A program made the position numbers and the translations under genes. The notes beneath the pieces are model-generated. The model was not told the origin of the DNA. It saw nothing but the letters and a program-made list of their open reading frames with translations, and did no database searches. This document shows, one piece after another, positions 451 through 17,338 of a stretch of DNA of 17,338 nt (the first letter of the stretch is position 1; each line of letters starts with the position of its first letter). The stretch comes from Cyanobacteria bacterium P01_A01_bin.123 (GTDB lineage: Bacteria > Cyanobacteriota > Cyanobacteriia > Phormidesmidales > Phormidesmidaceae): the NCBI GenBank assembly GCA_039815185.1, contig JBCBZT010000095.1, positions 1 through 17,338 on the forward strand, given 5' to 3'.

Positions 451-3219
451 TTACCCCAAATCTAGCTCCGCCTTCATCAAACCATCCCCCATCGGCTTCA
501 ACGTAAAGCCCACTTTCTGAAACACATGGCGCATGGCACCATTCTCCATCAGCACCTCAGCCGTAATCCGCTGCAAGCCCTCACCGCGAGCAATTCCAAT
601 CAGCCGCTCTAGCAATTCGGTTCCTAACCCAAGCCGCTGGGCCGGATCAGCCACCAACATGGCAAACTCGGCTTCATTCGTATCGTGTAATTTACTCAGC
701 CTGCCCACCGCCAAAATCTCACGGTGCCCCGTCTCAGGGTTGTCATAATCAGCCACGAGTGCCATTTCACAGTCATAGTCAATAAAGCAAATCCGGGTGA
801 GCCGCTCATGGGCGGTGCGGTGGCTGAGCTTCATCAGGTGAAAGTAGCGGAGGTAAACGCTTTGCTCAGACAGGGTCTGGTGAAACTGAACAATCAGCGG
901 TTCATCTTCGGGCTGAATCGGGCGGATGGTGACCGTGCGCCCGTCTTTGGCGATCCAGTCAGCCACATACTGGGTGGGATAAGAACGAATCGCAGGCTTA
1001 GGAATCTGGTCTAAATCGACTTCAGCGCTGTAAAGGACAACGCGGGCATCCAAGGCTTGCAGATGCCGGGTACCCGGAGCATCAACCGGAGATACCAACA
1101 AAGGATTGATGTCGATCTCTTGGATCTCGGGATGCTCAACCACCAGCTGGCTAAAGCGCACCAATATCTGCTCTAGCTGATGCAGATCAATGGCGGATCG
1201 ACCCCGGGTACCTTGCAGGGCCGTATAGATCCGCGTCCGCTCCATTAGCCGTCGGGCCAAAGTCGTGGTGAGGGGGGGCAGCGCGATCGCGCTATCACGC
1301 ATCACCTCAACCATTTGGCCCCCGGTCCCAAACAGCAACACGGGGCCAAATTGGGCATCAATGCTGCTGCCCAAGATCAGTTCGTAGCCGTCATCTCGGT
1401 TGATCATCGGCTGCACCGTCACCCCGTTGAAATGCTCAGCGCCCGCTTTAGCGGTGACTGCCGCTTCAATATCGGCATAGGCTTGCTCAACGGTGGTCGG
1501 GTGGTTCAGATTGAGCTTGACGCCGCCAACATCTGTTTTATGGGTAATCGTTTCAGACAATAGTTTGAGCACCACCGGATAGCCCAAGCGCTCGGCGCAG
1601 TCAACGGCCTCGGCTGGACTGGTCGCTTTTAAGGTCTCCACAATCGGAATCCCATAGGCCGCTAACACCTGCTTAGACTCTTGCTCTGTGAGCAGCGTCC
1701 GCTCCTGCTGCCGAACCGATTGCAACAGATCATCCACCTGCGATCGCGCCGCGCCATGCCCATTGTCCTCAATGGCTGCAATTGGGGTTTCATATAACGC
1801 CCTGAGGTTGTAGCTATACCGCCACATGAAGTTAAACAACCGCGCTGCCGCATCGGGATAAGGATAGGTGGGAATGCTGGCCTCATTTAAAATCTCTTCA
1901 CCCGCCATCGCCTCAGTGCCCCCCATCCAGCTCGCCAGAACGGGTTTATCACTCTTTTGGGCGTAGGCTTTGAGTTGTTCAGCCGTGCGAATCGGATCCG
2001 TCATCGCCTGCGGCGTCAAAATCACCAAGATGCCATCCCCATCGGGATCTTCAGCCGCAATTTCAAAGGCCTTGGTATAGCGCTCAGGATCGGCATCGCC
2101 CAAAATATCAACCGGATTGCTATGACTCCAGTGGGTCGGCAACACATGATTCAACGCTGCAATGGTGTCGGCATTCAACGTGGCCAACTGCCCCCCCGAC
2201 GTGATTAGCGCATCGGTGGTCAGCACTCCGGGGCCACCCGCATTCGTCACAATTGTCAGCTTGGGGCCTTGGGGCAGGCGATCTTGCTTGGCTAACACTT
2301 CAGCCACATCAAACATTTCAGCGATCGTATCCACCCGCAGCACCCCGCAGCGCCGAAACGCAGCGTCTAACACGGCATCGCTACCCGCCAATGACCCCGT
2401 ATGGGAAGCCGCCGCCTTGGCCGCCGCTTCCGTCCGTCCAGCTTTGATCACAATGATCGGTTTGGTCAAAGCCACTTCCCGCGCGGCGGAGAGAAACGAA
2501 CGGGCATCGCCGATGCTTTCCATATAAATGACGATGCTGTGGGTGTGGGGATCATCGCCGAGATAATAGATTAAGTCGCCCCAATCCACATCCAGCATGG
2601 ATCCAATGGAGACGAAAGCGCTGAAGCCCACACTTTCTCGAATGCTCCAGTCCAGCACGGCAGTGCAAATCGCCCCACTCTGGCTAATAAAGGCAACGTT
2701 ACCGGGTTTCGCCATGGTTCCGGCGAAGGTGGCATTCAACCCATTACCCGGGCTCATCACCCCCAAGCAGTTAGGGCCAATCAGCCGCAGTTGGCTTTGG
2801 CGGAGTTGCGCCAAAATATCCTGCTCTAAAGCCAGTCCGGCTTCACCAATTTCTTTGAAGCCCGCAGAAATGACAATCGCTCCTTTTACCCCGGCTTCAA
2901 TACACTCGCGAATAATGTCGGGCACTGTAGGGGCAGGGGTGACAATGATCACCAGCTCAACCACCTCTGGGATTGCTTTAATCGAGCTGTAGGCCTTGAT
3001 GCCCAAAACACTGCTGCGTTTAGGGTTGACTGGAAAAAGCGTGCCCCCAAATGGATGACTAATTAGATTCCATAGCAGGGTCCGCCCAACACTGCCCGCA
3101 CGATCGGTAGCCCCAATCACGGCAACGGTTTTGGGTCTAAAAATAGCCCTCAGGGGCTGATGCTCCGATCGCAAGATGTCATAAGCGGGATCGGGAATCA
3201 ACGTTTGTAAATTGGTCAT
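451..3219 (-). CDS. Bifunctional ADP-forming acetate--CoA ligase family protein / GNAT acetyltransferase (Pat-like architecture)
   Basis: 922 aa. CoA-binding N-terminus ([14 protein letters not shown]), SQSGA, phospho-His loop [13 protein letters not shown]-grasp with HKTDVGGV and IDINPL, and C-terminal GNAT ([26 protein letters not shown]). Confidence 0.93.
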
Positions 3220-4066
3220 ATTGAAACCTGCACCATAAACGCCGATAGACGTAAAACTTTAAACGCTAAAGGTCTGACGAACCCACGTCGGCATTGCCCT
3301 CTAGCTTTGAATTAATCAAGCGTAAACCCATCAAAATAAGACTGTCTGGCAAATAAACTGTGTCTACATCCAGATCCACAGTTTCTTCTTAAGCTAAAAC
3401 TCCAGATTTCAAATCGGATGTGGTTTAGAACACAGCGTAAACGCATCAAAGCTTTGAAGCACACACCTCATTTATAGCCGGACTATCTATAGCTATAGCA
3501 AACAAAATGCTGACGACTGCACATTAGCCTTTGCAGCGTTTATTCGCTGGCCACCTTAAATTTAGACGAAGTCAAGCTGATTCAAACTCGATCAAACCTG
3601 AAGTGAAAATTAAGTTTGAAGATCACCGATAGACACCCGCAGACAACTCAGACAAACCAGACTAAAACAACTCAGACATTGCCTTAATGGCTCCCACAAT
3701 TAACCCAAAAGATATCCATAAAGGATATCTATATAGCTTTATCTATAGACTAACAAAACTCAAAAGTATCGGGGATTACGCACTATCACAAATTGGCGTA
3801 TTGGTTGCTACAGACCCATCTGATTTTCGCTTAAAGAAGCCCAAGTTATTTTTTTTTGTGAATCTGACGAGATGATTTTCTATCGCTACAAATAAACTAA
3901 GATTGTAGGTAGATAAGCAGATCTACTCAGCGCTAAACCTCTACTCACATAAGGTCTAGCCACATTCCATGGGATTCATCAAGGTTTTTGAGTTGATTTC
4001 TCAACCTACGATTGTGCTTAGATAGCAGCCTTGCCTCCAGTTACAGAAGAGAGGGATTTTTTACAT
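3220..4066. promoter_or_regulatory. Divergent control region between the acyl-CoA synthetase/GNAT gene and adhE
   Basis: About 850 bp, AT-rich, between two divergent start codons. Contains several direct and inverted repeats (see findings). Promoter positions cannot be fixed from sequence alone. Confidence 0.7.
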
Positions 4067-6718
4067 ATGGCGATCGCAACTGTTAACGCCCTAGAAGCAT
4101 TGATTCAAAACGTTAAGGCGGCTCAAGCCGAATACGCTCACTTCACGCAAGAAACCGTTGATTACATTTTCAAAAAAGCCGCGCTCGCCGCTAATGCAGC
4201 CCGGATTCCCCTAGCTAAAGTTGCCGTTGAAGAAACGGGTATGGGCGTGGTTGAAGACAAGGTGATTAAGAACCACTTTGCCTCCGAGATTATCTACAAC
4301 AAATACAAGCACGAAAAGACTTGTGGCGTCATAGAAGAAGATAAATCCTTTGGGATTCAACGGATTGCCGAACCCGTCGGCATTTTGGCGGGTATTGTCC
4401 CCACCACGAACCCCACCTCAACCGCGATTTTCAAAGCCTTAATTGCCTTGAAAACCCGCAACGCAATTATTTTTTCACCCCACCCTAGGGCCAAGCGCTG
4501 CACGATTCAAGCCGCCCGTGTGGTGCTAGAAGCCGCTGTCGCGGCGGGCGCTCCAGAAAACATCATTGGCTGGATCGATGAACCGTCTGTGGAACTCTCC
4601 CAAGCCTTGATGCAACACCCCGATATCAACTTGATTTTGGCCACGGGTGGGCCCTCGATGGTGAAAGCCGCTTACTCGTCGGGTCACCCCTCCCTGGGGG
4701 TCGGCTCAGGCAATACCCCAGCCGTGATTGACACCACTGCCGATATCAAAACGGCGGTTTCCTCTATTCTGCTCAGTAAGACCTTTGACAACGGCATGAT
4801 CTGCGCCAGCGAACAGTCTGTGATTGTGCTGGATGAGGTTTACGAGGCAGTACATGAAGAATTCAAGGCTCGGGGAGCCTATTTCTTAACCGAGGGCGAT
4901 CGCGCCCATTTGAGCCCCAAACTTTTAGTCAATGGTCGTTTGAATGCCGAAATCGTCGGGCAACCCGTGACCAGGCTGTCAGAGATTGCAGACATCTCTG
5001 TGCCTGACAATACGCGCGTGTTAATCGGTGAAGTCAGCGATATCAATCACGATGAACCCTTCGCTTACGAGAAGCTGACCCCAGTCCTGGCCATGTATCA
5101 CGCCAGTGACTTTGAGGATGCGGTGGATAAAGCCAAGCAGCTCGTTTGCTTCGGGGGCCGGGGGCACACCGCCGTGCTCTATACCGATCCGGCCAACATC
5201 GAACACATCCGCAACTTTGAAGACAGCGTAGAAACGGCCCGCGTGTTGATTAACACCCCGTCTTCCCAGGGGGCCATTGGCGACCTTTACAATTTCCGCT
5301 TAGATCCCTCTTTGACCCTAGGTTGCGGGACGTGGGGCGGTAACTCCGTCAGTGAAAACGTTGATCCCCATCACTTACTCAACATCAAAACGGTGGCGGA
5401 GCGCCGCGAAAACATGCTCTGGTTCCGAGTGCCGCCCAAGGTGTATTTCAAGTACGGGGCGCTACCCGTCGCCCTGCAAGAACTGGCCGGTCGCCAACGG
5501 GCCTTAATCGTGACCGACAAGCCCCTCTACAACCTGGGCATGACCGCCAGCCTAGAAGATGCCCTCAAACAGATCGGTCTCACTTACGACATCTTCTACG
5601 ATGTGGAACCCGATCCTTCTCTAGAGACGGTTCAGCGGGGGCTGGCGCTGATGAACTCGTTCAACCCAGACGTAATTATTGCCATCGGCGGCGGGTCGCC
5701 CATGGATGCGGCCAAAGTCATGTGGTTGATGTATGAGCACCCCGACATTGAGTTTGAAGGGCTAGCCATGCGATTCATGGACATCCGCAAGCGAGTCTAT
5801 GAATTGCCACCCTTAGGGGAAAAGGCGATTATGGTGGCCATTCCCACCACCTCCGGCACGGGCTCAGAAGTCACCCCCTTTGCAGTGGTGACCGATCAGC
5901 GGGTGGGGGTGAAATATCCCTTAGCAGACTACGCCCTCACCCCCACCATGGCAATTGTCGATCCCGCTTTAGTGCTGAACTTGCCGAAGCGGCTGACGGC
6001 CTACGGCGGCATTGATGCCCTCACCCATGCCCTCGAAGCCTACGCGTCTGTGATGGCCTCTGAATTCACCAATGGCATGGCTCTCGAAGCGATTCAACTG
6101 TTGTTTGAATATCTGCCCAGGGCTTATCGCCACGGGGCCCACGATCCCGAGGCTCGGGAAAAGGTTCACTATGCCTCCACCATTGCGGGCATGGCCTTTG
6201 CTAACAGTTTCCTCGGCATTTGCCATTCCATGGCCCACCAGCTTGGCGGTACCTTCCACATTCCCCACGGTCTGGCGAATGCGTTGATGATTTCCCACGT
6301 GATTCGCTACAACGCCACCGATGCGCCGTTCAAACAGGCGACCTTCTCCCAATACAAATATCCCAATGCCAAGTGGCGTTACGCCCGGGTTGCAGAATTC
6401 CTAGGACTCGCAGGCATCAACGAAGGGGATAAGGTCAACGCCTTAATTGCAGCTGTAGAAGATCTGAAGCGGCAGTTGGATATTCCAATCTCGATCCGCG
6501 ACGCCATGTCGGGCACCGAGGTAGATTTCTTCACCAAGCTAGATCTAGTGGCCGATCAGGCGTTTGACGATCAGTGTACGGTGGCAAACCCCCGCTATCC
6601 GCTAATTAGCGATCTGAAGCAACTGCTCGTCGATGCTTATCGTGGGGTATCACCGCTCACCCATATCGATCAGGTTCCCACAGCCGCATCAGAATCAGAA
6701 CTTCAGCCAATCGGCTAA
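4067..6718 (+). CDS. adhE: Bifunctional acetaldehyde-CoA/alcohol dehydrogenase
   Basis: ALDH domain (PTTNPTST, ATGG, catalytic Cys in FDNGMICASEQ), linker LTLGCGTWGGNS, Fe-ADH domain (GGGSPMDAAK, PTTSGTGSEVT, DALTHALE, CHSMAH, HGLANA). Start moved from TTG 4031 to ATG 4067, which follows the SD-like GAGAGGGA. Confidence 0.97.
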   Translation: MAIATVNALEALIQNVKAAQAEYAHFTQETVDYIFKKAALAANAARIPLAKVAVEETGMGVVEDKVIKNHFASEIIYNKYKHEKTCGVIEEDKSFGIQRIAEPVGILAGIVPTTNPTSTAIFKALIALKTRNAIIFSPHPRAKRCTIQAARVVLEAAVAAGAPENIIGWIDEPSVELSQALMQHPDINLILATGGPSMVKAAYSSGHPSLGVGSGNTPAVIDTTADIKTAVSSILLSKTFDNGMICASEQSVIVLDEVYEAVHEEFKARGAYFLTEGDRAHLSPKLLVNGRLNAEIVGQPVTRLSEIADISVPDNTRVLIGEVSDINHDEPFAYEKLTPVLAMYHASDFEDAVDKAKQLVCFGGRGHTAVLYTDPANIEHIRNFEDSVETARVLINTPSSQGAIGDLYNFRLDPSLTLGCGTWGGNSVSENVDPHHLLNIKTVAERRENMLWFRVPPKVYFKYGALPVALQELAGRQRALIVTDKPLYNLGMTASLEDALKQIGLTYDIFYDVEPDPSLETVQRGLALMNSFNPDVIIAIGGGSPMDAAKVMWLMYEHPDIEFEGLAMRFMDIRKRVYELPPLGEKAIMVAIPTTSGTGSEVTPFAVVTDQRVGVKYPLADYALTPTMAIVDPALVLNLPKRLTAYGGIDALTHALEAYASVMASEFTNGMALEAIQLLFEYLPRAYRHGAHDPEAREKVHYASTIAGMAFANSFLGICHSMAHQLGGTFHIPHGLANALMISHVIRYNATDAPFKQATFSQYKYPNAKWRYARVAEFLGLAGINEGDKVNALIAAVEDLKRQLDIPISIRDAMSGTEVDFFTKLDLVADQAFDDQCTVANPRYPLISDLKQLLVDAYRGVSPLTHIDQVPTAASESELQPIG

Positions 6719-6730
6719 CGCGTTTTCAGT

Positions 6731-6759
6731 GCGGTGCAGCGGTTGCTACCCTGCACCGC
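6731..6759 (+). other. GC-rich intergenic hairpin between adhE and pflB
   Basis: GCGGTGCAG (6731-6739) / CTGCACCGC (6751-6759), extendable by GGT/ACC. No U-tract follows. Confidence 0.65.
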
Positions 6760-6844
6760 GACATCGCCTCAACCCGCAGCATGAAAGTTTCATTTGGTTA
6801 CGCCATCCCGTTACGCCACATCAATTCCACAACGAGGTAATTCT

Positions 6845-9121
6845 ATGGTCACGACCCCAATTCGCAACACCAATCAATCAACCACCCCTGTTAATCAAGA
6901 CGTCTGGCAGGGTTTCTCGCCCGGTGCTTGGCAAGCTGAGATTAACGTGCGGGACTTTATTCAGCGCAACTATGCCCCCTACACGGGTGATGACACCTTC
7001 TTAGCTGGGGCAACGGAACGAACCCAGGCGCTGTGGGCTCAGGTCAGCGATCTGATGGTCCAAGAGCGATCGCAAGGCATTCTCGATGCAGACACCCAAG
7101 TCCCCACGGGGATTACAGCCCACGCTCCGGGCTATATCGACGCCTCCCTAGAGCAAATTGTGGGCCTGCAAACCGATAAGCCCTTGAAGCGGGCGATTAT
7201 GCCCCTGGGAGGAATTCGGGTCGTCCGCAAGTCTCTGGAAGCTTACGGCTACGAGCTAGATGCAGGCACTCACGAAATTTTCACCAAGTACCGCAAGACC
7301 CATAATGACGGCGTGTTTGATGCCTATACCCAAGAAATGAGGCTGGCGCGGCACTCTGGCATCATTACCGGCCTCCCCGACGCCTATGGTCGCGGGCGGA
7401 TTATTGGTGACTACCGGCGGGTCGCGCTGTACGGCATCGACCGTCTGATTGCCGATAAACGCGACCAACTCACTTCCTTAGAAGTCGATGCGATCATCGA
7501 AACCGTTATCCAACAGCGGGAAGAAATCAACGAGCAAATTCGCGCCCTGGATGAACTCAAAGCGATGGCCACGAACTACGGCTTTGACATCAGCCGTCCG
7601 GCATTGACAGCCCAAGAGGCGATCCAGTGGACCTATTTTGGCTACCTAGGCGCTGTAAAAGAGCAAAATGGCGCGGCGATGTCGCTTGGGCGAATTTCCA
7701 CCTTCCTAGATATCTACATTGAACGGGATTTGGCTAACGGCACACTGAGCGAAGGGGATGCCCAAGAGCTGATTGACCACTTGGTGATGAAGCTGCGGAT
7801 GGTGCGTTTTTTGCGCGCCCCTGAATATAACCAACTGTTCTCAGGCGATCCCGTGTGGGTGACCGAGTGCATTGGCGGCATGGGTGAAAACGGCCAGCCA
7901 TTGGTAACGAAAAGCAGCTTCCGGATGCTGCAAACCCTCTACAACCTCGGCCCTGCACCGGAGCCTAACCTAACTGTGCTGTGGTCTGAGCAGTTGCCCC
8001 TAGACTTCAAGCGCTTCTGTACCAAAACGTCCATCGACACCAGCTCGATTCAGTATGAAAACGACGACCTGATGCGGCCTTTGTACGGCGATGACTACGG
8101 GATTGCTTGCTGTGTCTCGGCCATGCGGATTGGGAAGCAGATGCAGTTCTTCGGGGCGCGGGTGAATTTGGCCAAGGCCCTACTGTACGCCATCAACGGC
8201 GGCAAAGATGAGAAATCGGGTAAACAAGTTGGCCCGACCCTCGACCCCATCACCGCAGAAGTGCTGACGTACGACGAAGTTGCTGATAAATTCAACCAGA
8301 TGCTGGCGTGGTTGGCGAAGACCTACGTCAACACCCTCAACGTCATTCACTACATGCACGATAAGTACTGCTATGAGCGGATAGAGATGGCGCTGCACGA
8401 TCGCGATGTTTATCGCACCATGGCCTGCGGCATTGCCGGGTTATCCGTGGTGGGAGATGCGCTCTCGGCGATTAAGTACGCTCGGGTTAAGGTGCTGCGC
8501 AATGACGACGGTCTCGCGGTTGATTATGAGATTGACGGCGACTATCCCAAGTTTGGCAACAACGACGATCGCGTCGACAGCATCACGTCTGGGTTGGTTG
8601 AGCAGTTTATGAACTTGGTGCGACAAAACCCAACTTACCGAAACGCCGTGCCAACGCAGTCAATTTTGACAATTACCTCTAACGTGGTTTACGGCAAGAA
8701 AACCGGCAGCACCCCCGATGGCCGCAAGGCGGGTGAACCCTTTGCCCCAGGGGCCAACCCAATGCACGGGCGGGATACAAAAGGCGCGATCGCGGCCTGT
8801 GCTTCCGTCGCCAAACTGCCCTACGAGCACGCTCAGGACGGCATCTCCTACACCTTCTCAATCGTGCCCCAAGCCCTCGGCAAAACCGATGAAGCCCAGG
8901 TGCACAACCTCATTGGCGTGCTGGATGCCTATTTCCACGACACCGGGCACCACATCAACATCAATGTGCTCAACCGTGAGACCTTGCTAGACGCCATGGA
9001 TCACCCCGAGAAATATCCCCAACTCACCATTCGGGTCTCGGGCTATGCGGTGAACTTTATCAAACTCACCCGCGAGCAACAGCTCGACGTGATCAACCGC
9101 ACATTCCACGAACGGATCTAA
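6845..9121 (+). CDS. pflB: Formate C-acetyltransferase (pyruvate formate-lyase)
   Basis: Catalytic Cys-Cys in [10 protein letters not shown], glycyl-radical motif [29 protein letters not shown] 6845, preceded by SD GAGGT, is preferred over TTG 6794. Confidence 0.97.
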
Positions 9122-9129
9122 TCTGAAAC

Positions 9130-9160
9130 GGTTCGGGCGTGGCAGCGCCACGTCCGAACC
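9130..9160 (+). terminator. Strong hairpin after pflB (partial terminator or mRNA-stabilising stem)
   Basis: 14-bp stem GGTTCGGGCGTGGC / GCCACGTCCGAACC with one G-U pair, loop AGC, 8 nt after the pflB stop. No clear U-tract. Confidence 0.6.
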
Positions 9161-9260
9161 AATCGATACTTAATTGTTTGCAAGGAGGATTCAGCTAGAA
9201 AAGGATCGGGTTGCCACAAAAGGTTTCCCAAAACCGTCCCTGCCGTTGCTCGTAAATGAT

Positions 9261-10040
9261 ATGACTGCCCATCCGCTGACCCACCATCCACCCCTACCTG
9301 ATCTCCATTCCTCTCACAAAGGTCGCATTCACTCCATCGAAACCTGCGGCACGGTGGACGGGCCAGGCATTCGCTATGTGATTTTTACCCAGGGTTGTTT
9401 GCTGCGCTGTCAGTATTGCCATAACCCCGACACCCGTGATCCCCTCGGCGGTAGAGAGGTGACGGTGGATGAGCTGATTGACGACATCAAAACCTATCGG
9501 TCTTACCTCAACTTTTCAGACGGCGGCATCACGATTACAGGGGGCGAACCGTTACTCCAACCTGAATTCGTCCGAGAGATTTTTCGCCGCTGCCAAGCAC
9601 TGGGTATCCATACGGCGCTAGACACCTCTGGCTTCCCCGATTTTGAAGCGTCTAAACCCGTCCTCGACCATGTAGACCTCGTTCTGCTCGACATCAAATC
9701 GTTTGATCCGGCAATCTACCATCAGGTGACTAACGTTGCCATCGAGCCAACGCTCCACTTCGCCCGCTACTTGAGTGAAATCCAGCAGCCAACCTGGATT
9801 CGCTTTGTGCTGGTGCCGGGCTTGACCGATGACCGTGATAATGTCGAGGGCTTGGCCCAGTTCGTTTCAACTCTGAATGGCGTTGAGAAAGTAGAAGTTC
9901 TCCCGTTCCATCAGATGGGTGCCTACAAATGGAAAGAACTTGGCCTGCCCTATTTATTAGAAAACACAAATCCACCCACATCAGCGCAGATTGAGGCAGT
10001 TAAACGCACGTTTAGCAGTTATGGGTTACTTGTTGAGTAA
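9261..10040 (+). CDS. pflA: Pyruvate formate-lyase activating enzyme (radical SAM)
   Basis: GRIHSIETCGTVDGPGIR, CxxxCxxC in GCLLRCQYCHNPDT, GGITITGGEP, LDTSG, LPFHQMG. Directly downstream of pflB. ATG 9261 preferred over TTG 9174. Confidence 0.95.
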   Translation: MTAHPLTHHPPLPDLHSSHKGRIHSIETCGTVDGPGIRYVIFTQGCLLRCQYCHNPDTRDPLGGREVTVDELIDDIKTYRSYLNFSDGGITITGGEPLLQPEFVREIFRRCQALGIHTALDTSGFPDFEASKPVLDHVDLVLLDIKSFDPAIYHQVTNVAIEPTLHFARYLSEIQQPTWIRFVLVPGLTDDRDNVEGLAQFVSTLNGVEKVEVLPFHQMGAYKWKELGLPYLLENTNPPTSAQIEAVKRTFSSYGLLVE

Positions 10041-12748: not shown

Positions 12749-14986
12749 ATGGATCTCTTTGATCAACATCGTCAAACTTTACTTGAAAAAGAAGCTCCCC
12801 TTGCCGCTCGTATGCGTCCCCGCACGCTGGACGAGTTTGTCGGGCAAGGCGCAATTGTTGGGCCAGGGCGACTGCTGAGGCGGGCAATCGAGGCTGATCA
12901 ACTGTCGTCGCTGATTTTTTATGGGCCTCCAGGAACGGGTAAAACGACGCTGGCGCGGGTAATTGCCAATACGACTCGTGCCCACTTCATCGCGATTAAT
13001 GCAGTCCTGGCCGGGGTGAAAGACATCCGTGAGGCGATCGCGTCGGCGCAAGACCGCCGGGGACAATTTGGTCAGCGCACTATCCTATTCGTTGATGAAG
13101 TCCATCGGTTTAATAAGGCCCAGCAAGATGCTCTGCTGCCCTGGGTGGAAAATGGCACCGTAATTCTGATTGGGGCCACCACCGAAAATCCTTACTTTGA
13201 GGTGAACAAAGCCCTGGTCAGTCGCTCGCGGGTGTTTCAGCTCAAGCCCTTAGAAGATGACGATTTACGGGCGATCGCGCACCAAGCCCTCACCGATCCA
13301 GAACGGGGCTATGGCGATCACGTTGTGTCCATTTTGCCCGACGCCCTTGACCATCTGGTGAACGTGGCCAACGGGGATGCTCGGGGGCTGCTCAATGCCT
13401 TGGAACTGGCGGTGGAAACCACGCCCGTAGATGACTCCGGCGCGATCGCGATTACCCTCACCGTCGCGGAAGAATCGATTCAGCAGCGGGCCGTCCTCTA
13501 CGACAAAGAAGGAGATGCCCACTTCGACACCATCAGCGCTTTTATCAAAAGCATTCGCGGCTCTGATCCAGATGCGGCCCTGTACTGGTTAGCCCGGATG
13601 CTCTATGCCGGAGAAAATCCCCGCTTTATTTTTCGGCGGTTGGTGATTTTAGCCAGCGAAGATGTGGGATTGGCCGACCCCCACGCGGTCACCGTGGCCA
13701 CCAGTTGCGCCGAATCATTTGATCGAGTGGGCATGCCCGAGGGTCGCTATCCCCTAGCCCAGGCCACCCTGTATTTGGCAACCGCCCCCAAATCCAACAG
13801 CGTCATGGCCTTTTTCGATGCCCTGGCAGCGGTCGAACAAGAACGGGAAGCCGACGTGCCCAATCCGATGAAAGACGGCAACCGCGACAAAAAAGGCTTT
13901 GGCCACGGGGCAGGCTATCTCTATCCCCACGCTTACCGCGATCATTGGGTGGCTCAGCAATATTTACCCACTGCCCTGCAAGGCCAGGTATTTTATCAGC
14001 CCTCTGACCAGGGCTATGAAGACAGCATTCGTGTGCAGGTCGCCCGTCGCCGGGAAGCTCAACTGGCAGCCATTTTAGAGGGGGGCGGTGCCTTGCCAGA
14101 AGGGCTCACCTCTAGTCCTGACAATCCGGGGCAAGAGCGCTGGCTCCAAAGGGCACTGGGGCAAGCTGGAACGCAGTTGGCGTACGGACGCGATCGCTTA
14201 TTTGCCACCCTCCAACCCCAACGGCACCACGTCATCTTAGATGTCAACGCGGGCAGTGGTTTGCTCACCTGGGAAGCCCTGCGCCAGGTGCCCGAAGGCG
14301 GTGTTTATGCTGCGGTTCACCGTCCCCAAGATGCGGCTGCGCTGGTGGAACAAGCGGCCCAATTGCCGGAACTCAATCGACCGATCGTGATGCAGGCCGA
14401 CCTTAACCAGTTGGATCAAGCCCTGGAGCAGCAGGCCAAAGGTGTTCGCTTTGACTGGATTATTGGTCGCAATGCGTTAACTCAAGTGGTTGACAAAGCC
14501 ACAGTCCTCCAGCAGTGGATAAACTGGTTGCAGCCCACAGGCGCGATCGCCCTAGTTGAATCTATCCCCCGTCAAGCCCAACGCCTCTACCAGTTACTCA
14601 ATCCCGATGCTTTGCCAGCAGCGCTTTACCAAACCGTGGTCATCGCCGAAGAGAGCATCTACCAAGATCCCAATAACCCAATGGTCAACTGGGATGCCGC
14701 AGATTTAAAGACCGCCTTTGAAACTGCCGGACTCACCGTTCAACTCACCGTCGAAACACCCCAAACGGAGGTGCTGATTACGCCACGATTGTTTAACCAC
14801 TGGTTCAGTGCTAGTGGTTCTGGTAAGAAACTGACGTATCGCGATCGCCTCTCGGCCTATCTCAATGAAACTGACTTGAAAACCGTTGAAACCACTTTCA
14901 AACGTTATTTATTGAATCAAACCGTCTTGTGGCAAAGTCAAATTGCGTTTATCAGGGGCGATCGCAATGAGACAAAGAGTATTTAA
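12749..14986 (+). CDS. rarA: Replication-associated recombination protein A (RarA/MgsA AAA+ ATPase) fused to a C-terminal class I SAM-methyltransferase-like domain
   Basis: APLAARMRP, Walker [10 protein letters not shown], Walker [50 protein letters not shown]. About 300 extra aa containing [10 protein letters not shown] and FDWIIGRN. Confidence 0.93.
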
Positions 14987-15025
14987 GGGTCTAACCCAGA
15001 AGCGGAGGGATGATTATACTGAAAC

Positions 15026-15148
15026 TTTCTACCTAATTCCCCATATAGGGATCTTAGGCAGACATCATTCCACCTATTTACCCCTAGAAGGATCTTAGGC
15101 TGAAATATTTCCACCTAAGATCCCGTATCAGGATCTTAGGTGGAAAAG
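15026..15148. repeat. Three tandem 41-bp palindromic units (16-bp arm, 7-bp centre, 16-bp arm, 2-bp link)
   Basis: GGATCTTAGG recurs at 15049, 15090 and 15131. Unit 3 is a perfect inverted repeat: TTTCCACCTAAGATCC-CGTATCA-GGATCTTAGGTGGAAA (15108-15146). Confidence 0.9.
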
Positions 15149-15152
15149 TCCT

Positions 15153-15171
15153 CTCTAATAACAAGTTAGAT
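15153..15171 (+). other. attI-like integron recombination simple site (L box, 5 bp, R box)
   Basis: CTCTAAT-AACAA-GTTAGAT compared with attI1 CCCTAAA-ACAAA-GTTRRRY. The R box is a perfect GTTRRRY. Confidence 0.6.
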
Positions 15172-15207
15172 GAAATAGTGTAGTAAAACAAATATCGCTC
15201 ACTGTTA

Positions 15208-16149
15208 CTAGCTGAATCGTTTCATTGTGAGTTCACGATAAGTGCTTGGTGAACAGTTATAAATTCTGCGAAAAGCTTTGTTAAAACTTGTATGAGAGGC
15301 AAAACCAACAATTTCGCTAATGCTTTTGATAGACTGATTTGTCTTACACAGTTGGCGTGCTGCTTCTGACAATCGCCATCGTAGTACATACTCATGAGGA
15401 GGTACAGATAGATAAGTACTAAAGATGCGCTTGAAGGTTGCAATTGACATACCTGATTGATCTGCAAGTGCTTGAATCGTCCAAACTTTTTCAGGTGATG
15501 AATGAAATGCGGCTAGCGATCTCGCTAGGTTCGGTTCACGTATTGCGGCGAAGATTCCAAAAGATGACGAGTTTTGAGTCCCAAAACCACGCAATACTTC
15601 CAGGAATAAAATTTCGGCATAGCGCTGAATAATAGCTGAAGTACCTGGACGCTCATCTTTTAGTTCACCCACGATCAGCTCGATCAGCTGGGTAAAGCGT
15701 GGATTCAGTAAATTTTGCTCAAATACCGTCACGGCCTTAAATGCAGGTGTCAAGATAGGGGCCAAAGCCATGTCAATTGTGAACGTACCGCAAATCATTC
15801 GACACGTGGACCCGGAACCACCTTCATATAGTTTCCAGCCTAGCCCGATTTTTACGGTCTTCTGCTCCATTGTCGCTAAAGACTCAGAGAAAGCTGTCTT
15901 CCCTGATCTCAGCTTAAAGGGGATGTGCGGTGCAACTATTGCAAGTGCACCTGCTGACAATAGAAAATCATTCCCCTGTTGCAATCTGCTTTGCTCTGTC
16001 AGTAAAGCTTCTCCCTCTACGAGAATGTGATAAGCAAAACCATCTATCTCTGTAAATTCCACCCCCCAGGGTGCAGAAGCCGTTACCCCGACCACCATTG
16101 CTGCAGTGGGTTGAATGTTATTAAGTAAGGCTTTCAGAAGCATCTGCAT
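15208..16149 (-). CDS. AraC-family transcriptional regulator with N-terminal cupin-like domain
   Basis: APWGVEF, YHILVEGEA, MICGTF in the N-domain. Double HTH: WTIQALADQSGMSIATFKRIF, PPHEYVLRWRL, ISEIVGFASHTSFNKAFRRIYNCSPSTYR. ATG 16149 (or 16143) is more likely than GTG 16224. Confidence 0.93.
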   Translation of the reverse strand: MQMLLKALLNNIQPTAAMVVGVTASAPWGVEFTEIDGFAYHILVEGEALLTEQSRLQQGNDFLLSAGALAIVAPHIPFKLRSGKTAFSESLATMEQKTVKIGLGWKLYEGGSGSTCRMICGTFTIDMALAPILTPAFKAVTVFEQNLLNPRFTQLIELIVGELKDERPGTSAIIQRYAEILFLEVLRGFGTQNSSSFGIFAAIREPNLARSLAAFHSSPEKVWTIQALADQSGMSIATFKRIFSTYLSVPPHEYVLRWRLSEAARQLCKTNQSIKSISEIVGFASHTSFNKAFRRIYNCSPSTYRELTMKRFS

Positions 16150-16150
16150 A

Positions 16151-16180
16151 TTTGAGCTATATGGATAATATTTTGAGCTA
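16151..16180. promoter_or_regulatory. Candidate AraC-type operator: TTTGAGCTA direct repeat with 21-bp period
   Basis: TTTGAGCTA at 16151-16159 and 16172-16180 in the divergent intergenic region. A further TTGAGC occurs at 16216. Confidence 0.6.
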
Positions 16181-16252
16181 ATCTCGCTATGAACTAACCA
16201 TAGCTGGATGTTAGCTTGAGCCACAAGAACTCAAATATCGAGAATACACATA

Positions 16253-17146
16253 ATGAAAACCACTATTGGAGTTTTAGGCGCTACGGGCCGTGTTGGAGGA
16301 ACAGCTGCTCGCACTTTGATTTCTAAGGGCATCTATCCTCGTCTAATTGTACGTAATGCTCATCAGCTACCTGAGAATATTCGTACTGCTGCTGAAGTCA
16401 TTGAGGCTGATTTGACCAGACCAGAGACCGCGATCGCAGCCACTACTGGATTGGAGACATTATTTTGGCTAACTCCCGATAATTTTCAGGCAGAAGACAT
16501 TCAAAGCTATTACGAGGCGATGGGTGATTGTGCTAAGCAGATTGTTCAAAAAAACAATATTGCAAGAGTCGTACAACTTTCTGCCGCGGGGGCCGATCAA
16601 GACCAATTTGGTATTATCAGTGCTCAGCGTATTATTGAGGATGCATTTCAAAGTGTGGCTACCCATCACTTCATCCTGCGCCCAGCTTATTTTTATGAGA
16701 ATTTTCTGCTCCAGATTCAGTCGTTGAGTCAACAGGGTTTATTATTTGAGTTGTTCCCTGAAGATATTGTTATTCCGATGGTTACAACGACTGATGTCGG
16801 GATTGAAATAGCACGTGTCCTCATCGATTCCTCTTGGTCAGGCACCATTGCTCAAGAAATACGTGGACCAGAGCGACACACCATGCCCTCAGCACTTACT
16901 GCGTTTGGTCAAGCTCTCAGCCGTTCATTTACGTATGTCAGAGTTTCAAGTATGGAAATGACTAAGGTGTTTCAATCACTTGGTGCAACTCAGTCTGTAA
17001 TCGACAATGTGCTTGAAATGTTTAAAGCTATAGCCGAGGGGCGTGCTACGCAATTAGAGGACTCGTCAGTTATTGTTGCTAAAACAGGTGCTCAGCAATT
17101 TGCCCAAACAACTCTGAGTTTTGCCCTTGAAAACTATAAGCAGTAG
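16253..17146 (+). CDS. NmrA-like / atypical SDR NAD(P)H-binding oxidoreductase
   Basis: 297 aa. Rossmann motif IGVLGATGRVG, plus RVVQLSA, ILRPAYFYEN, IPMVTTTDVG, IRGPE. Divergent from araC. Confidence 0.9.
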   Translation: MKTTIGVLGATGRVGGTAARTLISKGIYPRLIVRNAHQLPENIRTAAEVIEADLTRPETAIAATTGLETLFWLTPDNFQAEDIQSYYEAMGDCAKQIVQKNNIARVVQLSAAGADQDQFGIISAQRIIEDAFQSVATHHFILRPAYFYENFLLQIQSLSQQGLLFELFPEDIVIPMVTTTDVGIEIARVLIDSSWSGTIAQEIRGPERHTMPSALTAFGQALSRSFTYVRVSSMEMTKVFQSLGATQSVIDNVLEMFKAIAEGRATQLEDSSVIVAKTGAQQFAQTTLSFALENYKQ

Positions 17147-17222
17147 TTGATTTGGGAGAACCCTTGACGACAACGACTATTTGAAGAATATTTCACAGTC
17201 CGTTTGTGAGATACGTAATCTA

Positions 17223-17338
17223 ATCGGGATAGGGAGAATCCTCACGAATCCCCCCTCCCACACCACCCTGCAAGCGGGTCCGCACAGGGCGGTTCAGCAT
17301 CACGGAGCAAACTCTAACCTGAGTTGTCAACTATAGCC
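17223..17338 (-). mobile_element. 3' end (domains V and VI) of a class C group II intron, continuing beyond the window
   Basis: Minus strand reads GAACCGCCCTGTGCGGACCCGCTTGCAGGGTGGTGTGGGAGGGGGGATTCGTGAGGATTCTCCCTATCCCGAT. DV (17262-17293) has the class C CGC triad. DVI has a GTGA tetraloop and a bulged A 8 nt from the end (17230). The terminus is AT. Confidence 0.92.

Follow-up and report, generated by a model that had tools for sequence, protein, structure and literature searches.

Extended attI architecture of cyanobacterial integrons, conserved and integron specific, at a site without an integrase

The window in this report, a stretch of 17,338 nucleotides analysed as a whole (contig C111 of its genome), holds an integron fragment joined to the 3' end of a host gene. 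That gene, rarA/mgsA (12749-14986, forward strand), encodes an AAA+ ATPase with a C-terminal methyltransferase-like domain (MgsA_C, E 4e-64). An array of palindromic units (15026-15148) sits between rarA and a low-GC pair of divergent genes for an AraC-family regulator (15208-16224, reverse strand) and an NmrA-like oxidoreductase (16253-17146, forward strand). Adjoining the array, as the sequence-only reading of this DNA had claimed, is a simple attI site (15153-15171, forward strand) with an L box at 15153-15159, a 5-bp spacer, and the R box GTTAGAT at 15165-15171, a layout that agrees with the GTTRRRY form of the R box and with a core profile from 51 loci. The crossover, G|TT, falls at 15165/15166. 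Joined at this G|TT is the first gene cassette (15165-17223, forward strand), which carries the AraC+NmrA pair and is closed by an attC with a matching R'' (17217-17223); its ATCTAA (17218-17223) pairs with the R box GTTAGAT. The site does not adjoin the 5' end of an intI, and no intI was found on C111 by tblastn with IntI; close homologs of the module do adjoin an intI 5' end, e.g., in G020:C180, G019:C43, and G006:C69. Elsewhere in the window, the translations of 4031-10040 read as an adhE, pflB, and pflA cluster (the fermentative pyruvate formate-lyase pathway), and that of 451-3219 as an acetate-CoA ligase/GNAT fusion.

The cassette boundary was compared with eight of 20 DNA sequencing runs. 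The AraC+NmrA unit begins at 15164-15165 in contigs of five of the eight (X2, X3, X4, X5, and X10), which come from four studies; the source sample may itself belong to one of them. The same unit has different flanks in X3, X4, and X5. In X3 and X5, by our own reading of the letters, an attC-like end precedes it, and in both runs non-intron sequence continues from 17224. Because the start of the unit is shared across samples and its flanks differ, it is a true mobile cassette, and 15165/15166 is the crossover point. The eight runs yielded no joint, and among their contigs listed, none of which spans the stretch, 0 had the rarA-linked array with another cassette.

The contig ends inside a group II intron, of which the 3' end (17224-17338, reverse strand) is present in the cassette attC at R''. 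Rfam family RF00029 matches 17223-17294; no other family reached its gathering score in a scan of 14800-17338. Group IIC-attC introns occupy the bottom strand and sit at the TAA of R'' in cassette attC sites. The present intron resembles them in strand and insertion point, with RF00029 as the evidence of class and only the 3' end to go by. The same intron end breaks at least eight contigs (the window, C130, C14, C5, C106, C127, C121, and C113), which suggests that the intron is active and targets attC.

The array is composed of three units, U1 (15026-15066), U2 (15067-15107), and U3 (15108-15148), with a period of exactly 41 and pairwise identities of 31/41, 29/41, and 29/41. The best 82-nt periodic match between 14900 and 15300 is 61, compared with a maximum of 42 and a mean of 35.5 in 1,000 shuffles of dinucleotide tokens. 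The unit coordinates and the exact period are as the sequence-only reading had given them. Its other descriptions of the units held as well: the right arms are better conserved than the left (14, 13, and 14 matches of 16, versus 12, 12, and 11), and symmetry is perfect in U3 only (16/16 self-complementary pairs, with 11/16 in U1 and 9/16 in U2). The array does not have the makeup of a dispersed or CRISPR-like repeat, being tied to an integron, with units identical at 29 to 31 of 41 positions and no spacers between them.

The conserved element is a half-site of ~12 to 15 bp, together with a tail-to-tail palindrome that lies between the units as they were first drawn. This palindrome occurs four times, and the final copy, which includes the attI L box, ends in L. 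The half-sites were scored with a profile of the attI left-arm half-site alone (the L-half profile, 15 nt read outward), built from the 51 of 83 loci that were core anchored; the window was absent from the training set. Counted from the crossover, the direct half-sites, on the forward strand, are at -152 (15013-15027, score 17.6), -112 (the U1 right arm, 15053-15067, 4.9), -71 (the U2 right arm, 15094-15108, 8.8), and -30 (the U3 right arm, 15135-15149, 4.3), the last being the positional equivalent of DR1 in attI1. The inverted half-sites, on the reverse strand, are at -130 (the U1 left arm, 15023-15037, 12.1), -89 (the U2 left arm, 15064-15078, 6.9), and -48 (the U3 left arm, 15105-15119, 5.4). 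The site at -152 had been suspected as a degenerate fourth right arm and is a real half-site, with the top score of the ladder; it carries TATAAT on the minus strand at 15013-15018.

On average, the L-half profile matched 4.8 times per locus within 168 nt upstream (45 cyanobacterial loci) and 0.27 times per locus downstream (30 of these loci). Its peaks fall at -30, -71, -112, and -152 in the direct (R) orientation and at -48, -89, and -130 in the inverted orientation, and all seven are matched in the window; the site at -30 overlaps the training window of the profile and is not independent of it. The array and L consensus sequences are nearly identical, and the ladder is built from L-type half-sites. 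Most array boxes do not have the G of GTT (the AAC triplet), which, according to a passage of PMC4792948, matters when IntI1 binds the R box.

Across 33 standard-type loci, tail-to-tail boxes are 17 to 18 bp apart in 84 of 99 unit positions, and head-to-head boxes are 16 to 19 bp apart in 98 of 99. This spacing bears on an alternative offered by the sequence-only reading, that the units are themselves tyrosine-recombinase sites, competent for recombination and with overlap regions of 7 bp. Conserved CC..GG does flank a variable 7-bp center, and tyrosine recombinases of the IntI family have overlaps of 6 to 8 bp. The IntI-type boxes (TAA..TTA), however, stand 17 bp apart in 65 of the 99 head-to-head positions, beyond that range and beyond the 7 bp of the true core, and the 7-bp "center" is merely the middle of the 17-bp spacer. 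The units thus do not have inverted half-sites 6 to 8 bp apart. Furthermore, cassettes join at the terminal core and not inside units in the intI-linked regions that we read, and none of the other tyrosine recombinases of the genome lies beside an array. We regard this alternative as very unlikely.

A long subtype of the ladder has its first box at -40 and not at -30, has six to eight units, and extends to about -267. It occurs in the source genome (C108:70670-70950, C60:44740-44940, and C70:73080-73340) and elsewhere (L020, L064, L088, L116, and L121); behind the C70 copy the core is present in duplicate, ~130 bp apart. A second type of array (G000:C14:760-1010, L033, and L216) has a period of ~42 and another box variant, and it reaches the start of intI; the integrases of these loci do not belong to the main cyanobacterial clade. 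A collapsed site is found at G000:C120:2325-2350, where next to nothing separates the outermost box from an R box; a cassette gene and an attC follow.

The number of units, ~2 to 8 among loci, would be compatible with neutral tandem duplication of the DR1-L palindrome, by slippage or attI × attI recombination, with function limited to the one or two sites nearest the core. Serial homology alone accounts for the likeness to L under this reading. Within a locus, L matches its own array at 0.611, compared with 0.520 when permuted; a comparison with the array of the nearest IntI relative gave 17 versus 9 (p 0.17), so that the tree-aware test is not significant, and coevolution of L and array with IntI is not supported beyond kinship by that control. 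The array profile also diverges with IntI distance (Mantel r 0.57), which fits binding by IntI but would follow from linkage as well. Against neutral duplication, the positions are kept across integrases ~60 to 100% identical to the query, the spacers cluster at 17 and at 17 to 18 bp, the boxes are fixed in position while the spacer bases vary, and the long subtype is displaced by exactly 10 bp. Taken together, we think neutral duplication quite unlikely.

Conservation of the array upstream of intI was assessed with a model-free test, in which the best period between 15 and 60 was found in up to 450 nt upstream of intI and compared with shuffles (p≤0.02). Ninety of 110 loci (L017 to L126) passed filters for the 5' end and upstream DNA, and 83 were kept after the removal of five duplicates and two errors, 71 of them cyanobacterial and 12 from elsewhere. 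The best period was 40 to 42 in 59 of the 71 cyanobacterial loci, with 55 of the 71 beating the shuffles, while 0 of the 12 others were significant; one of the 12, L086, is near-identical to a cyanobacterial locus and was treated as cyanobacterial in the later profile work. Among coding controls from intI itself, 3 of 90 had a best period of 40 to 42. In new loci the test was passed by 9 of 10 from cyanobacteria and by 2 of 7 that have close integrases but belong to other phyla, for a cyanobacterial total of 64 of 81 passing and 17 failing; the IntI1-side outgroup, taken from a metagenome scan, gave 2 of 75, about the chance rate. None of five loci from non-photosynthetic classes passed, and the region tested there is probably coding, since open frames run to 437 to 502 aa. 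The IntI-like proteins of non-photosynthetic cyanobacterial relatives (L172 to L178, in frames of 437 to 502 aa) suggest an N-terminal extension, as judged from the frames. In a FastTree phylogeny of 117 integrases, including 14 outgroup rows, a single clade of 73 members (support 0.87) contains 60 of the 64 loci that are array positive. The integrases were gathered by similarity to that of contig C36 of the source genome, and kin among them are not independent. The window module itself was matched in 26 of the 41 genomes searched, 21 of them among the 24 that belong to the same family, often with an intact intI directly following. The array is thus an extended attI architecture of cyanobacterial integrons, conserved and integron specific, and in the window it stands without an integrase.

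The source assembly (8.09 Mb in 133 contigs), the relatives of which have cyanobacterial integrase loci, has 6% contamination, and some array copies may stem from a second strain. Exact 10-mer scanning, BLAST, and profile searches found at least 18 arrays in it, of several sequence variants, six of them within 900 nt of intI or intI fragments, including the sole intact intI (C36). Same-strand attC sites lie within 4 kb of 7 of the 13 arrays that have at least 2.5 kb on the cassette side, compared with 0.6% of random positions; the attC profile, for which 11 sites of other genomes served as the training set, has low sensitivity, and a simple attC heuristic found few sites. At least four further integron remnants lie beyond the 18 arrays. 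On inspection by eye, the ladders flagged at C67, C82:104537, C95, and C113 were judged not to be arrays. Rather than being scattered without a link to cassettes or recombinases, the arrays lie at intI, attI, and attC loci, in keeping with what the sequence-only reading had supposed. The C36 gene encodes an integron integrase (TIGR02249, 476 bits against a cutoff of 265), with the catalytic R, K, H, R, H, and Y present in an alignment to 2A3V. Because its own array is diverged and its tree position is apart from that of the IntIs with the arrays best matching the window, it may not be the integrase that serves the site in the window.

A host protein, such as a regulator, a nucleoid protein, or the host Xer, might instead bind the palindromes and control PintI/Pc or shape the synapse, replacing LexA control. 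That the regular ladder is all but restricted to a single clade of cyanobacterial IntIs (60 of its 73 members) would fit this, as would the divergent LexA motif of cyanobacteria noted in a passage of PMC3108266. There is also a modest excess of solo tail-to-tail pairs in the source genome, with 23 pairs at 17 bp outside the 18 arrays versus 7 to 8 in shuffles, an excess that is partly explained in that at least four are integron remnants; an apparent excess at a spacer of 16 was discarded as an artefact of profile self-overlap (14 to 29 in shuffles versus 19). Head-to-head pairs outside arrays, however, are not enriched at any spacer from 5 to 30, including the dif-like 6 to 8, and 17-bp head-to-head pairs number 19 inside arrays and 1 outside, which argues against a host regulon. 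A host protein would also have to be reconciled with a half-site near-identical to the L box, which IntI must bind, with several array sequence variants in one genome, with the lack of room for a gene between intI and the array at standard-type loci, and with similar tail-to-tail pairs that we see by eye in Chloroflexota-type integrons. We consider it unlikely that a host protein is what the array serves.

The region folds better than shuffles (z -3.7), U3 forms a perfect 16-bp stem, and the arms resemble the R'' and R' boxes of attC, all of which would suit extruded hairpins or cruciforms that mimic attC, or a processed small RNA. The pairing pattern does not: among 65 units G-T pairs (89) are not favored over A-C pairs (110), and three positions inside the boxes pair 14, 22, and 13 times, where independent columns would give 20, 21, and 20. 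U1 and U2 are poorly paired, and the Rfam scan likewise left the units without a family. With G-U pairs not favored, the units bear no sequence sign of a processed RNA. An attC is a bottom-strand hairpin of R''-L''-L'-R' spanning ~55 to 140 bp, while the units are 41 bp long and have no L'' or L' boxes, and the insensitive attC profile of 11 training sites found no match on C111. Hairpins or small RNAs are a very unlikely explanation.

On balance, we think it likely that the array is the upstream part of the integron attI, made of seven L half-sites that probably are accessory sites for IntI. That it belongs to attI at all we hold with high confidence; that IntI binds it as accessory sites is a prediction from the letters, held with moderate confidence. 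The sequence-only reading had proposed phased binding sites for a dimeric protein, akin to DR1 and DR2 of attI1. The phasing and the association with an integron attI stand, as do the inverted pairs, now seen as alternately inverted boxes, while the binding protein remains putative. Because IntI must bind L, and the ladder consists of L-like half-sites in helical phase, extra IntI monomers could dock along the same face of the DNA at distances that would preclude cutting. The box spacing of 17 is 7 plus one turn and the period is about four turns, as loading on one face would require, and the long subtype at -40, exactly one turn farther out, would fit as well. Such a complex might favor attI × attC capture over attI × attI, by analogy with DR1 and DR2, which, according to passages of PMC8946536, favor attI1 × attC and have been proposed to act as a topological filter.

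In 7 of 33 loci the minus strand of the -152 box reads TATAAT, and in 26 of 33 the distance from this box to the start of intI is 66 to 80 nt. This hexamer might be the -10 element of PintI, ~70 nt before intI. Because a scan for sigma-70 promoters and terminators returned no full sigma-70 match and no terminator, the -10 reading is that of a lone hexamer. With the outermost box overlapping this minus-strand TATAAT near the start of intI, bound IntI may damp its own promoter. In the most extended form of this proposal, which is speculative and which we rather doubt as a whole, a filament of cyanobacterial IntI on a phased ladder of 160 to 280 bp would gate capture and autorepress intI in place of SOS control; the ~20 integrase-less copies per genome, cut at HIP1, would be functional satellite sites of capture supplied with integrase in trans, making the chromosome a distributed integron.

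Phased accessory sites beside a recombination core have precedents. In the TnpI IRS of Tn4430 and the res sites of the Tn3 family, a crossover core is accompanied by phased sites for the same recombinase, which act as a topological filter, and the ladder as we read it resembles both in having a core and further phased sites of one recombinase. The res sites belong to serine recombinases, and the TnpI site has two direct repeats; to our knowledge neither has an alternating 41-bp ladder. The closest likeness is to attI1 of class 1 integrons, where, according to passages of PMC8946536 and PMC4792948, 5 bp separate the L and R boxes, crossover takes place at G|TT, and an accessory box lies ~30 bp upstream in direct orientation. 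On a class 1 plasmid (L157) we place DR1 at -32 and DR2 at -51, both direct, so that the first rung of the ladder, at -30, matches DR1 in position and orientation. It is not a DR1/DR2-type pair, since the -48 box is inverted and the ladder runs on to -152: attI1 has two direct repeats and ~65 bp, whereas the present site has seven alternately inverted boxes with a period of 41 over ~160 bp. The accessory sites of attI1 are described as two direct repeats in the same two sources, one of which (PMC8946536) describes the Vibrio attIA as having no repeats, while the other (PMC4792948) states in a passage that how integrases recognise attI is poorly known. The titles and abstracts covered by our literature search describe no such arrays.

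With the ladder included, the capture sites of most of the cyanobacterial integrons examined are more than twice the length of the textbook attI. According to a passage of PMC4889954, IntegronFinder detects attI by exact match to classes 1 to 3 only, so extended sites go unrecognised, and the ladder offers a searchable attI signature for what that tool does not cover. The CALINs of Cury et al. (2016), described in the same paper, are like the present locus in having cassettes without a nearby intI and an IntI elsewhere in the genome, but here an intact-looking attI platform is kept. Many apparent CALINs of this kind retain a full putative docking site, with at least 18 in one genome; should such sites function in trans, arrays without an integrase would not be dead ends. 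Across the cyanobacterial IntI clade the seven-box ladder is also a natural deletion and phasing series in which the role of accessory sites can be probed.

The loss of intI from the window probably took place at the rarA junction. Similarity to the intI-attI leaders of six relatives (L128, L129, L130, L133, L141, and L154), aligned by eye, starts right after a HIP1 octamer at 14958-14965, our putative junction, and the leader remnant (14966-15012, forward strand) has no intI upstream. A second rarA-like 3' end, on C21, diverges at the same HIP1 point, and in four relatives no array lies within 350 nt after rarA. A breakpoint at HIP1 that fused the platform to rarA likely removed intI here, as far as these alignments tell. 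Of the 14 arrays without an intact intI, 5 have HIP1 no more than 100 nt upstream, compared with a background of 10.5% (p 0.011 in this post hoc test). The source-genome contigs concerned in arrays near HIP1 are C111, C26, C8, C108, C121, and C68, and on C68 the start of intI breaks off exactly at HIP1. We rejected GGGTCTAAC at 14987-14995 as an attC R''; it aligns with the intI-attI leader. The C21 sequence (G000:C21:3919-4043) is a ~90% identical HIP1-to-HIP1 copy of the rarA 3' end (14841-14965 in the window), and it lies in a cassette array directly after an attC-like R'. The opposite end of the group II intron can apparently be read at the start of C21. The two contigs, C111 and C21, may therefore adjoin each other in the genome, and this duplication of the rarA end may flank the island.
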